A DNA stretch of 64,000 bases from Escherichia coli (GTDB lineage: Bacteria > Pseudomonadota > Gammaproteobacteria > Enterobacterales > Enterobacteriaceae): NCBI RefSeq assembly GCF_009931435.1, contig NZ_CP043414.1; one strand, written 5' to 3'. Positions 24,775 to 61,680 of the stretch are shown in pieces; within the stretch, counting starts at the first letter, position 1, and every line of letters begins with the position of its first letter. A program made the position numbers and the translations under genes. Below the pieces are notes generated by a model. It was not told where the DNA came from. It saw only the letters and a list, made by a program, of their open reading frames with translations, and did not search any database.

Positions 24775-24867
24775 GGTGAGGTGGCCGAGAGGCTGAAGGC
24801 GCTCCCCTGCTAAGGGAGTATGCGGTCAAAAGCTGCATCCGGGGTTCGAATCCCCGCCTCACCGCCA
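24775..24867 (+). tRNA. serV: tRNA-Ser (anticodon GCU)
   Basis: 93-nt sequence GGTGAGGTGGCCGAGAGGCUGAAGG...CCGCCUCACCGCCA with long variable arm and anticodon loop CCUGCUAAG. Confidence 0.93.
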
Positions 24868-24870
24868 TTT

Positions 24871-24947
24871 GCATCCGTAGCTCAGCTGGATAGAGTACTC
24901 GGCTACGAACCGAGCGGTCGGAGGTTCGAATCCTCCCGGATGCACCA
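24871..24947 (+). tRNA. argV: tRNA-Arg (anticodon ACG)
   Basis: GCATCCGTAGCTCAGCTGGATAGAGTACTCGGCTACGAACCGAGCGGTCGGAGGTTCGAATCCTCCCGGATGCACCA; 3 nt after serV. Confidence 0.93.
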
Positions 24948-25082
24948 TATTCTACGAAATCTTCAGCAATGAAGGTGTCGAAGAGGTGGCGGTACTAACC
25001 GCAAGCACCAGGGAGGATAACGTTGCTTTAGCAACGGCCCGAAGGGCGAGCCGTAAGGCGAGTAATCCTCCCGGATGCACCA
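24948..25082 (+). repeat. Spacer repeat unit ending in a tRNA-Arg 3'-terminal fragment (aatcctcccggatgcacca)
   Basis: About 135-nt unit after argV; its last 19 nt duplicate the T-arm/acceptor 3' end plus CCA of tRNA-Arg without the rest of the tRNA. Confidence 0.6.
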
Positions 25083-25146
25083 TCTCTTACTTGATACGGC
25101 TTTAGTAGCGGTATCAAAAAATCTGCAGTAAAGTAAGTTTCCCGAT

Positions 25147-25223
25147 GCATCCGTAGCTCAGCTGGATAGAGTACTCGGCTACGAACCGAGCGGTCGGAGG
25201 TTCGAATCCTCCCGGATGCACCA
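25147..25223 (+). tRNA. argY: tRNA-Arg (anticodon ACG)
   Basis: Identical 77-nt tRNA-Arg copy; spacing to neighbours (276 and 140 nt) matches the argVYZQ arrangement as I recall it. Confidence 0.9.
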
Positions 25224-25286
25224 TCTCTTACTTGATATGGCTTTAGTAGCGATATCAATATCAGCAGTAAAGTAAGTTCTCCCGAT

Positions 25287-25363
25287 GCATCCGTAGCTCA
25301 GCTGGATAGAGTACTCGGCTACGAACCGAGCGGTCGGAGGTTCGAATCCTCCCGGATGCACCA
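25287..25363 (+). tRNA. argZ: tRNA-Arg (anticodon ACG)
   Basis: Identical 77-nt tRNA-Arg copy. Confidence 0.9.
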
Positions 25364-25498
25364 TATTCTCCGAAATCTTCAGCAATGAAGATATCGAAGA
25401 GGTAGCGGAATTAACCGCAGGCACCAGGAAGGATAACGTTGCTTTAGCAACGGCCCGAAGGGCGAGCCGCAAGGCGAGTAATCCTCCCGGATGCACCA
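25364..25498 (+). repeat. Spacer repeat unit ending in a tRNA-Arg 3'-terminal fragment
   Basis: Near-identical copy of the 24948-25082 unit after argZ. Confidence 0.6.
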
Positions 25499-25561
25499 TC
25501 TCTTATTTGATATGGCTTTAGTAGCGGTATCAATATCAGCAGTAAAGTAATTTCTCCCGAT

Positions 25562-25638
25562 GCATCCGTAGCTCAGCTGGATAGAGTACTCGGCTACGAA
25601 CCGAGCGGTCGGAGGTTCGAATCCTCCCGGATGCACCA
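25562..25638 (+). tRNA. argQ: tRNA-Arg (anticodon ACG)
   Basis: Identical 77-nt tRNA-Arg copy; last gene of the operon. Confidence 0.9.
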
Positions 25639-26955: not shown

Positions 26956-28539
<1,584 letters not shown>

Positions 28540-28547
28540 CAGAAAAG

Positions 28548-28620
28548 AAAAAGGCCACTCGTGAGTGGCCAAAATTTCATCTCTGAATTCAGGGATGATG
28601 ATAACAAATGCGCGTCTTTC
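28548..28620 (-). ncRNA. micA: MicA (SraD) small regulatory RNA
   Basis: Minus strand reads GAAAGACGCGCATTTGTTATCATCATCCCTGAATTCAGAGATGAAATTTTGGCCACTCACGAGTGGCCTTTTT, the MicA sequence as I recall it, with its terminator hairpin GGCCACTCACGAGTGGCC and T-run; located between gshA and luxS. Confidence 0.85.
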
Positions 28621-28688
28621 ATATACTCAGACTCGCCTGGGAAGAAAGAGTTCAGAAAATTTTTAAAAAAATTACCGGAGGTGGCTAA

Positions 28689-29204
28689 ATGCCGTTGTTA
28701 GATAGCTTCACAGTCGATCATACCCGGATGGAAGCGCCTGCAGTTCGGGTGGCGAAAACAATGAACACCCCGCATGGCGACGCAATCACCGTGTTCGATC
28801 TGCGCTTCTGCGTGCCGAACAAAGAAGTGATGCCAGAAAGAGGGATCCATACCCTGGAGCACCTGTTTGCTGGTTTTATGCGTAACCATCTTAACGGTAA
28901 TGGCGTTGAGATTATCGATATCTCGCCAATGGGCTGCCGCACCGGTTTTTATATGAGTCTGATTGGTACGCCAGATGAGCAGCGTGTTGCTGATGCCTGG
29001 AAAGCGGCAATGGAAGACGTGCTGAAAGTGCAGGATCAGAATCAGATCCCGGAACTGAACGTCTACCAGTGTGGTACTTATCAGATGCATTCGTTGCAGG
29101 AAGCGCAGGATATTGCGCGTAATATCCTGGAACGTGACGTACGCATCAACAGCAACGAAGAGTTGGCGCTGCCGAAAGAAAAGTTGCAGGAATTGCACAT
29201 CTAG
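28689..29204 (+). CDS. luxS: S-ribosylhomocysteine lyase (AI-2 synthase)
   Basis: 171-aa [34 protein letters not shown]..., HxxEH metal motif (HTLEHL). Confidence 0.96.
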
Positions 29205-29217
29205 TCAATTGAAGAGG

Positions 29218-29247
29218 CCGGGCAGGTGATATCACCGCCCGGTTTTT
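29218..29247 (+). terminator. Rho-independent terminator of luxS
   Basis: ccgggcaggtgat/atcaccgcccgg hairpin followed by TTTTT, 14 nt after the luxS stop; abuts the stop codon of the convergent 370-aa ORF. Confidence 0.6.
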
Positions 29248-29248
29248 A

Positions 29249-30361
29249 TTACCTGTCAGTCACCCGATATTCCACGCTATGTGCTTCATCAGGTTGAGGA
29301 ACTTCCAGCCTTGAGGCCATCCGCATCACGACCGCTTCAGGAACGGCATACTCGCGCCTGGCATTTTGCTGCTTCCATTGCGCCCACGGTACTTCCAGAT
29401 AAACGATTTTTACTCGTGCACCGTAAGCCGTAAACAGACTGATGAGCTGGCTACGCAACTGGCGGGTAATGTTCGTTGCATTCCAGATGAACGGCTTCTT
29501 CTGGCGTAAAAAAACGCGCGCTTCTTCTTTTGCCTGTTGCACAATACGCCCGGTGGCGGTTTTGTCGTCCGGACTGGCATTGATTCGCCGCCGCATATCA
29601 TCAAGGCTGATAACGTTCACTCTCTGGCACTGTTCACTGATAAAGCGATCTTTGCCCATACCCGGTAAACCACACAGCAAAATAACCTCAAAAGATTCAG
29701 CCTCCCAGGGAACAAAATCAGGAGAACTTTGTTCATGGGTCAGGTAATGCCAGCGTGCGGAATCCGAAGCGAATGAACGCACTTTTCCCCAGCATTGTTG
29801 CTCCTGGCAAAATAGCTTGAACAGATCGATGCGTTCCAGCATTGATTGCTGATCATGACAATGGCGACCAAGCAGATCGGCACGAGCAAGCAAAGCGAGC
29901 AGACGCGTGTCGATACGCATTGCAGCCGTGAGCAGCAAACGCTCCGGTTCCGGACGTTCCAGTAACCATAGCGGTAACCCATGCAGACGCACCAGTGCAA
30001 CAATTTGCTCGCGTAGCACGAACGGTGTCGGGATATCGCGCCATAAAATTTGTCGGGCCGTCAATTCACCCCGACGAGCATGACCAGGGGACTGAATACG
30101 TCCGTTTTCCTGCACGGTAGTACTGCGCTTTTCAACGTCATGCAATAACGCCGCCGCCCATAAAATTTCCTGCTGCTGAGCGGGGAGTTGCTGAAACTCA
30201 GCCATCGCAACGAGTGCGTTCAGCACCATTTCAGTATGCACACCAACGTCGCCTTCACCATGATGCTCCGGGTCTTGCGGCGTGTTATGCATATCCTCAA
30301 CCCAGCTAAAACGCTGGCGTAGCGTCGACCAGCGTTTGTCGTCGGTAAGTTGCCAAATCAT
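29249..30361 (-). CDS. HD-domain phosphoesterase fused to P-loop NTPase (polynucleotide-kinase-like); predicted RNA/DNA end-healing enzyme
   Basis: 370-aa ORF. N-terminal HD signature: [16 protein letters not shown] (res 31-46), AALLHDVEK (res 70-78), ARADLLGR (res 159-166). C-terminal Walker A GLPGMGKD (res 231-238) and Walker B-like NVISLDD (res 249-255). Start overlaps the stop of the upstream ligase-like ORF by 4 nt. Confidence 0.65.
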
Positions 30362-31065
30362 GACTGTTCTCCATAAGCGAACTCATGGGCCATCCGCGCC
30401 CGTCGCCAGTGGCGTTTCCAGTGCTCGGTGGTTTTGACATGATTTTTGCGTACATACTTGAAGACGTTATGCGAAAAGTCAGCGACGGAAAACGCATCAC
30501 TATTCCGGCTGACAATGCCTTCCAGCGTACAGGGTTGCCCGGTTTGCGTATCCCAGGGATCGAACGCGCCGCGCGCATTGGTCAGCGCCAGAAAATCACG
30601 TTGCCAGCTTTTTTCATCATTCCCCGGCTGCGGGCCGGAGATTTCGGGAACGCAGGGGAAATCAAACAGAGCGGCGTAAAACTGCACCTCTTCCCAGCTC
30701 AGCCACATATCCTGGCAGCGAACGGCAAACAGATAAAAATCCTGCTCCAGGGCGCGATATTCAATCGAATGAACGGCATAAAGATTTTCACCAAACAACT
30801 CCAGATCGCCGAGATCGTTTTTCAGCGATTGCCAGCGTTGGCGAATTTTATAGGTCCATGCCGATTCCGTTGGCGCGGCATGGGAACGGGCAAACACGCC
30901 GAAGCGATTAAGACAGTTATTTTCGCCGTCGAGTTTTTCAGTATGTACCAACTGCGAAATTGCCTGCATATCTTGCCAGTAACTGGCGTTAATGCGGTCA
31001 TCGCTGGTGGTGCCAGGGGAGAAGGGATAATGCCAGGTTCTCCCGTATTTACGTTGGATAATCAT
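30358..31065 (-). CDS. Rnl2-like ATP-dependent RNA ligase (nucleotidyltransferase domain only)
   Basis: 235-aa ORF with candidate covalent-nucleotidyltransferase motifs in canonical order and spacing: I KLDG (K44), III LFGE (90-93), IV EGIV (182-185), V KYVRK (203-207). First gene of a 2-gene operon. Confidence 0.6.
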
Positions 31066-53194: not shown

Positions 53195-53420
53195 AGAGCG
53201 GCTCCGCCTTATCCGGCCGACATAGATTTATTCCTGTTCACGTACAGATTGTCGGATGCGGCGTAAACGCCTTATCCGACTTGGATTCTCGTAGGCCGGA
53301 CAAGACGCGAAGCGTCGCCTCCGGCATGGTGCGCCGAATGTCGGATGCGGCGTAAACGCCTTATCCGACCTACATTTCCGTAGGCCGGACAAGACGCAAA
53401 GCGTCGCCTCCGGCATGGGT
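53195..53420. repeat. Cluster of REP/BIME elements including two tandem ~80-bp units
   Basis: gtcggatgcggcgtaaacgccttatccgac...gtaggccggacaagacgc(g/a)aagcgtcgcctccggcatgg occurs twice (about 53251-53328 and 53340-53417), preceded by a third partial copy. Confidence 0.6.
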
Positions 53421-61604: not shown

Positions 61605-61680
61605 GGCCCTTTAGCTCAGTGGTTAGAGCAGACGACTCATAATCGCCTGGTCGCTGGTTCAAGTCCAGCAAGGGCCACCA
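61605..61680 (+). tRNA. ileY: tRNA-Ile2 (anticodon CAU, lysidine-modified type)
   Basis: GGCCCTTTAGCTCAGTGGTTAGAGCAGACGACTCATAATCGCCTGGTCGCTGGTTCAAGTCCAGCAAGGGCCACCA; cloverleaf with anticodon loop CTCATAA; adjacent to ygaQ as in K-12. Confidence 0.9.

Follow-up and report, generated by a model that had tools for sequence, protein, structure and literature searches.

The palindrome between gshA and micA in Escherichia coli: a likely one-way terminator for the small RNA MicA

In Escherichia coli, the gene of the small RNA MicA and the enzyme gene gshA are convergent and meet at a palindrome. This locus raises the question of whether the palindrome terminates transcription in both directions, as a first-pass annotation of the sequence had claimed, or serves MicA alone. 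We analysed the locus within a 64-kb stretch of DNA, referred to as the window. We estimate a probability of about 85% that the palindrome is a one-way intrinsic terminator for MicA and not a canonical terminator toward gshA, and that gshA lacks a terminator of its own. The genes concerned are:

26983-28539, plus strand: gshA (glutamate-cysteine ligase), TTG start, TGA stop at 28537-28539; from the open reading frame (ORF) list and the RefSeq annotation of a strain identical over 501 bp
28548-28620, minus strand: micA (MicA/SraD sRNA), 73 nt by the K-12 annotation; from Rfam, identity to K-12 and K-12 b4442
28689-29204, plus strand: luxS; from the ORF list and the RefSeq annotation of the strain identical over the queried 501 bp

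When the whole window was scanned against Rfam with cmscan, the MicA family (RF00078, gathering score 41 bits) matched at 28549-28620 on the minus strand, with 83.9 bits, an E-value of 1.4e-11 and full-length coverage of the model (positions 1-75). An alignment of window positions 28520-28700 to K-12 MG1655 is 100% identical over 181 columns, and the identical span takes in the MicA seed, both stem-loops, the promoter, the end of gshA, and the luxS leader and start. The locus is the micA gene, letter-identical to that of K-12. The first-pass annotation had named a minus-strand MicA here and proposed a reference alignment as a check; both the Rfam score and the alignment, which shows no divergence in the seed or elsewhere, agree with it. 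MicA lies on the minus strand between the plus-strand genes gshA and luxS, convergent to gshA, and the luxS ATG is 68 nt from the MicA +1 (the G at 28620), with luxS transcription directed away from micA. In the curated K-12 record, the ncRNA micA (b4442) occupies 2814802-2814874 and gshA is recorded from 2814883, so the gap between the gshA stop and the MicA 3′ end is 8 nt, the approximate value given in the first pass. The gap is 9 nt by the Rfam match and 5 nt by published Term-seq, which would place the 3′ end at 28545 and give a 76-nt RNA. Of 5426 complete E. coli genomes, 5423 contain the 501-bp neighbourhood (28300-28800), at a median of one place per genome and a maximum of three.

The closest known system is K-12 MicA itself (SraD, b4442, RF00078), which shares the whole gene, the promoter, both flanks, the structure and the neighbours gshA and luxS. 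There is no difference within the locus; after luxS, this strain has a 2.1-kb HD/kinase and RNA-ligase cassette, whereas K-12 has emrB. The essentials of the micA locus are already published, and nothing essential about it is new here.

The arrangement is also conserved beyond E. coli. A scan for the MicA seed in one genome per species gave 120 loci in Enterobacterales, from genera including Escherichia, Citrobacter, Enterobacter, Klebsiella, Yersinia and Serratia, as well as Pantoea, Erwinia, Pectobacterium, Dickeya, Edwardsiella and Hafnia. The order gshA, micA, luxS, with micA facing gshA and pointing away from luxS, is kept in about 115 species. A convergent gshA lies downstream in 115 of 121 sequences, and 118 of 121 have a divergent luxS upstream; cuts at the locus ends account for at least part of the missing neighbours.

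Automated annotation does not display this gene. In the RefSeq/PGAP annotation of the strain identical over 501 bp, there is no feature between gshA and luxS, which explains a feature track that is empty at this point; the curated K-12 record has micA. A mechanical reading frame overlaps the MicA 3′ region:

28336-28572, minus strand: mechanical 78-aa ORF with a TTG start, antisense to the 3′ end of gshA; from the ORF list

The first-pass annotation had called this frame spurious, and our results point the same way. The product has no Pfam match, and the frame is broken in close relatives: it is down to 35 aa in both E. albertii and Citrobacter, measures 47 aa in a second E. coli, and reaches at least 60 aa in just 36 of 118 loci. 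An open frame with a TTG start is what could speak for a real gene overlapping MicA and gshA; since the frame is also antisense to a conserved enzyme gene and starts inside the MicA terminator region, we give such a gene practically no chance. For annotation hygiene, this means that the automated RefSeq annotation leaves MicA unmarked and that mechanical ORF calling overlays a false 78-aa gene on it.

The 5′ half of the locus contains the promoter and the region that pairs with target mRNAs:

28627-28653, minus strand: sigma-E-type micA promoter, with -35 GAACT (28653-28649) and -10 TCTGA (28631-28627); from a pattern match and the sequence
28597-28620, minus strand: single-stranded 5′ target-pairing region, approximately MicA nt 1-24, including the ompA-pairing GCGCAUUUGUUAUCAUC; from the Rfam consensus structure and the fold

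The putative promoter has the layout GAACT-N17-TCTGA-N6-G(+1), and a pattern scan finds the sigma-E pattern once in the 64-kb window, at micA. Upstream of it is an AT-rich stretch (approximately 28656-28673). Across 118 loci, conservation is 90% or more for the AAC of the -35 element and the GTCTnA of the -10 element, and their distance from +1 is fixed. A sigma-E promoter had been expected near 28621-28660, and the conserved motif falls there. By its letters the element is of sigma-E type; dependence on sigma-E is taken from K-12, where the micA promoter has been reported to be sigma-E-dependent (PMC1851643; PMC1804206) on a fragment covering micA -85 to -1 (PMC1851643). Primer KU32 matches 28621-28638, and the K-12 fragment is the same here for at least the 80 nt nearest to +1, which lie within the identical alignment.

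MicA nt 8-24 pair with positions -21 to -6 of K-12 ompA at -26.5 kcal/mol (RNAduplex), with a weak shuffle control in which 29 of 500 shuffles were as good. The ompA used was the K-12 gene, as the ompA of this strain lies outside the window. Because of the weak control, the assignment of ompA as a target is carried by the seed itself, which is identical to that of K-12 and thereby retains complementarity to the ompA translation-initiation region. RybB, another sigma-E-dependent and Hfq-binding sRNA that represses omp mRNAs, shares the promoter type, the 5′ seed, and the terminator hairpin with a U tail (PMC1804206). It differs from MicA in sequence family and locus, and it is not antisense to neighbouring mRNAs.

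The 3′ half of MicA contains the elements on which the question of termination depends:

28577-28598, minus strand: MicA internal stem-loop (nt 23-44); from the centroid fold and the Rfam structure line
28571-28576, minus strand: A/U-rich linker AAAUUU(U), directly 5′ of the terminator hairpin; from the sequence
28553-28570, minus strand: terminator hairpin GGCCACU-CACG-AGUGGCC, 7 bp with a 4-nt loop, -11.0 kcal/mol; from a terminator scan and folds
28540-28552, minus strand: U-rich tail UUUUUCUUUUCUG; from the sequence and a terminator scan

The hairpin sequence GGCCACTCACGAGTGGCC reads from 28570 to 28553 on the minus strand and continues into TTTTTCTTTT, and this combination of a GC-rich 7-bp hairpin with a T-rich continuation is that of a Rho-independent terminator for MicA. 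In this class of sRNAs, the hairpin and U tail form the Hfq-binding 3′ module. Hfq-binding sRNAs are also reported to have a run rich in U directly in front of the terminator hairpin, on its 5′ side (Ishikawa et al. 2012, RNA). The U tail UUUUUCUUUUCUG occupies the entire interval between the hairpin and the gshA stop codon. The hairpin had been described as starting immediately after the gshA stop; it is present, but it begins 13 nt after the stop, and these 13 nt are the complement of the MicA U tail. Of the 112 homologous loci in which this distance could be measured, 111 fall within 8-27 nt; 13 nt is the most frequent value, and 99 loci have at most 15. Where it is 8-9 nt, the TAA stop itself forms part of the T-rich tail. 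In 86 distinct homologues, the pairs of the internal stem-loop are kept (95-100% paired), and the terminator stem has six invariant pairs and a seventh that covaries between A-U, U-A and G-C. The MicA tail begins with TTTT in 113 of 117 loci. The Term-seq data of Adams et al. 2021 (PMC7815308) place the MicA 3′ end at 2814877(+) under all three growth conditions. Re-mapped to the window, this is position 28545, within the U tail and 8 nt past the hairpin.

The opposite strand of the palindrome presents a different picture. Folding gives the hairpin the same stability on either strand (-11.0 kcal/mol each), and this symmetry is one argument for a true bidirectional intrinsic terminator, at which MicA and gshA transcripts alike would end. 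On the gshA strand, however, the hairpin continues into AAAATTTC / AAAATTTCAT, which contains no U tract, whereas the MicA strand continues into TTTTTCTTTT. The linker at 28571-28576 reads AAAATTT on the gshA strand, and the U tract is likely missing there because the U-rich linker in front of the MicA hairpin reads as an A run from the other side. A weighted T-tail score is 4.91 for the MicA strand versus 0.36 for the gshA strand. The asymmetry is general: over 118 loci, the score has a mean of 4.75 (minimum 2.67) on the MicA strand versus 0.33 (maximum 1.25) on the gshA strand, and the gshA-strand tail starts A-rich (mostly AAA) in essentially every species, with 0-4 T in its first 8 nt. A U tract on the gshA side, as a bidirectional terminator would have, is therefore absent from all 118 homologous loci. 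A scan for a hairpin followed by a T run accepts the minus strand alone and finds no plus-strand terminator between gshA and luxS; that gshA has no other terminator-like site before luxS is a point in favour of the bidirectional reading.

Published transcripts of luxS provide an independent view of whether plus-strand transcription stops at the palindrome. The relevant promoter is:

28319-28357, plus strand: sigma-S luxS promoter P1, inside gshA; from PMC2956633, with the KU40/KU41A primers and the -332 G located by eye

Udekwu 2010 (PMC2956633) described P1 as a sigma-S promoter whose transcription start site is a G, located at -332 relative to the luxS ATG and corresponding to G28357 in the window. 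By 5′-RACE and northern blotting, the P1 transcript runs through the palindrome into luxS and crosses all of micA, and a P2 species probably also crosses micA (PMC2956633). Because the P1 transcript starts in gshA and reaches luxS, sense transcription passes the palindrome, and we infer that the hairpin terminates gshA transcription inefficiently. The long 5′ UTRs of luxS lie antisense to MicA, and the transcripts that cross micA are turned into a shorter species in a process that depends on both MicA and RNase III, with no effect seen on the LuxS protein level (PMC2956633). In this respect the locus resembles cis-antisense sRNA/mRNA pairs cut by RNase III: the long luxS leaders are complementary to MicA over its whole length, and their RNase III-dependent processing has been reported (PMC2956633). 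Unlike in such pairs, the main established role of MicA is Hfq-dependent regulation in trans, and an effect on LuxS protein was not seen (PMC2956633). The same study states that there is no evidence for a gshA-luxS polycistronic mRNA (Udekwu 2010, PMC2956633). This is a point in favour of a bidirectional terminator, and it implies that full-length gshA transcripts must stop or be cut nearby.

To locate these ends, we re-mapped the gshA-sense 3′ ends from one published data set, the K-12 Term-seq of Adams 2021 (PMC7815308, supplementary file 1), a type of data that does not separate termination from processing. The 3′ end was taken as the 51st letter of each 61-nt string in the table, and this convention was confirmed with sgrS, aspU and aspV. 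At OD 0.4, the listed end is 2814861(-), or window position 28561, which falls in the 4-nt loop of the hairpin. At OD 2.0, it is 2814914(-), or 28508, with a read count of 305886 and a position 31 nt upstream of the gshA stop codon. If the hairpin terminated gshA transcription, an end at approximately 28575-28580 would be expected; neither of the two ends is there, and the Adams 2021 Term-seq lists no 3′ end in the gshA sense immediately beyond the hairpin. For the can/hpt pair, whose two strands also share a hairpin, the same table has ends shortly after it in both directions. At micA/gshA, ends a few nucleotides past the hairpin are seen on the MicA strand only.

We note that the end at 28561 is a counterpoint to the one-way reading, as Term-seq classes this exponential-phase gshA end inside the palindrome as 'primary'. 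The palindrome is thus not irrelevant to where gshA RNA ends, and a weaker form of the two-way idea survives, namely that gshA-sense RNA ends cluster at or near the palindrome. It has also been reported that 3′ ends can arise at hairpins without U tracts when convergent polymerases collide (bioRxiv 10.1101/2022.10.23.513370). Overlapping two-way terminators are stated to be common at convergent genes of E. coli by Ju et al. 2019, as cited in the same preprint. Such terminators (for example ynaJ-uspE; Ju et al. 2019 and the Wang et al. 2022 preprint) likewise consist of one palindrome and two convergent units with almost no spacer, and like them micA and gshA have overlapping 3′ ends on the two strands (28545 and 28561). 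Unlike them, micA/gshA has no U tract on the gshA side, a gshA-sense end in the loop, and read-through into luxS. An RNA ending at 28561 would not contain the hairpin and is listed at OD 0.4 only, and the OD 2.0 end lies upstream of the stop codon. Together, the one-sided T tail, the read-through from luxS P1 and the Term-seq ends do not bear out the bidirectional terminator of the first pass, and we consider a bidirectional intrinsic terminator to be distinctly unlikely.

If the palindrome is a one-way terminator for MicA, the ends of gshA mRNA call for another origin. One explanation is that micA activity sets them, either by head-on collision of RNA polymerases or by MicA pairing followed by a cut by RNase III or another nuclease. 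The gshA 3′ end moves from 28561 at OD 0.4 to 28508 at OD 2.0, the phase in which MicA accumulates (PMC2956633; PMC1851643). With a gap of just 5-8 nt, a gshA 3′ UTR of any length is bound to be complementary to MicA. Sense RNAs from this locus have been reported to be processed in dependence on RNase III and MicA (PMC2956633), and collision-driven termination has been reported for convergent genes (bioRxiv 10.1101/2022.10.23.513370). The spacing fits less well, since 28508 is 36 nt from the MicA 3′ end at 28545, versus 26-31 bp between the active sites in structures of collided RNA polymerases, and head-on collision is therefore kept only as a low-probability alternative. Across the final 140 codons of gshA, compared among 52 relatives, synonymous-codon entropy shows no local dip, including around 28508, which argues against a conserved site. 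In the literature searched, we found no paper linking MicA to gshA expression beyond their adjacency, and the Term-seq ends could stem from termination or processing. We regard control of the gshA ends by micA activity as rather unlikely. A more specific version starts from the lack of a separate gshA terminator and from the direct contact with micA in almost all of the approximately 115 Enterobacterales species sampled. In it, sigma-E-driven micA activity in stationary phase sets the gshA end by collision or MicA/RNase III cleavage, and truncates the mRNA 31 nt before its stop codon into a non-stop message; we estimate it to be very unlikely. If it were true, envelope stress would be coupled to glutathione synthesis, and MicA would regulate gshA in cis in addition to luxS.

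The one-way terminator reading gives the following most likely working of the locus, in which identity, geometry, promoter and terminator motifs, tail asymmetry and conservation are computed here, and sigma-E dependence, read-through and RNase III processing come from the literature. Under envelope stress, sigma-E RNA polymerase would start at G28620 on the minus strand and produce an Hfq-binding sRNA of approximately 73-76 nt, whose single-stranded 5′ end would pair with ompA and other mRNAs. The GGCCAC...GTGGCC hairpin and U tail would end MicA transcription in one direction, and MicA read-through would be caught by a Rho termination region reported at 2815245(+), approximately window position 28177 on the minus strand, antisense within gshA (PMC7815308). 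Transcription in the gshA sense, including that from luxS P1, would pass the palindrome, and the resulting RNAs, complementary to MicA over its full length, would then be processed by MicA and RNase III. Since gshA lacks its own terminator, antisense overlap with MicA is unavoidable both for the gshA 3′ UTR and for the long luxS leaders. In this arrangement, the U-rich linker in front of the MicA hairpin leaves the opposite strand without a U tract, and the sense RNA that reads through becomes a MicA target. A palindrome between convergent genes should thus not automatically be taken as a two-way terminator.

Several further observations were made in and around the locus. In gshA, the codon at 28468-28470 on the plus strand is GTA (Val) here versus GAA (Glu) in the K-12 sequence of the Term-seq table, at a position that varies among relatives. 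A sigma-70-like site (ATGATA-18-TATACT, 28598-28627, plus strand) lies inside micA on the luxS strand. [quoted passage not shown] The published 'promoterless' luxS fragment (-84 to +6, from 28605; PMC2956633) would lack the -35 hexamer of this site.

Directly after luxS, two overlapping genes occupy 29249-31065 on the minus strand, where K-12 has emrB. The 370-aa product has a weak HD match (below the Pfam cut-off) and a strong AAA_33 P-loop kinase domain, and the 235-aa product has an RNA_ligase domain (PF09414). By their domains, the two genes look like an RNA-repair pair of kinase/phosphatase and ligase. A PADLOC search of the cassette returned nothing; the cassette occurs in 999 of 5426 complete E. 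coli genomes, with none more than 98.6% identical to the window. The luxS terminator at 29217-29251 (GGCCGGGC...GCCCGG followed by TTTTTA), which the simple terminator scan missed, abuts the kinase-like gene, which is convergent to luxS and has its stop codon (read as TTA here) at 29249. luxS and this gene thus meet tail to tail with zero spacer, the same design as at micA/gshA.

Elsewhere in the window, naRNA4 (RF02564), a REP-type palindromic repeat element, matches at 53294-53370 on the minus strand with 71.1 bits (gathering score 59.5). A tRNA-Ser(GCU) gene followed by four tRNA-Arg(ACG) genes lies at 24775-25638 on the plus strand. An antisense tRNA-Arg(TCG) called by ARAGORN at 24891-24962 overlaps the first of these Arg genes, is absent from the Rfam matches, and is probably false. 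At 61605-61680 on the plus strand, approximately 33 kb from micA, there is a single tRNA with the anticodon CAU, which ARAGORN assigns to Met; its position would fit ileY on the K-12 map, the tRNA-Ile2 with a lysidine-modified CAU anticodon.
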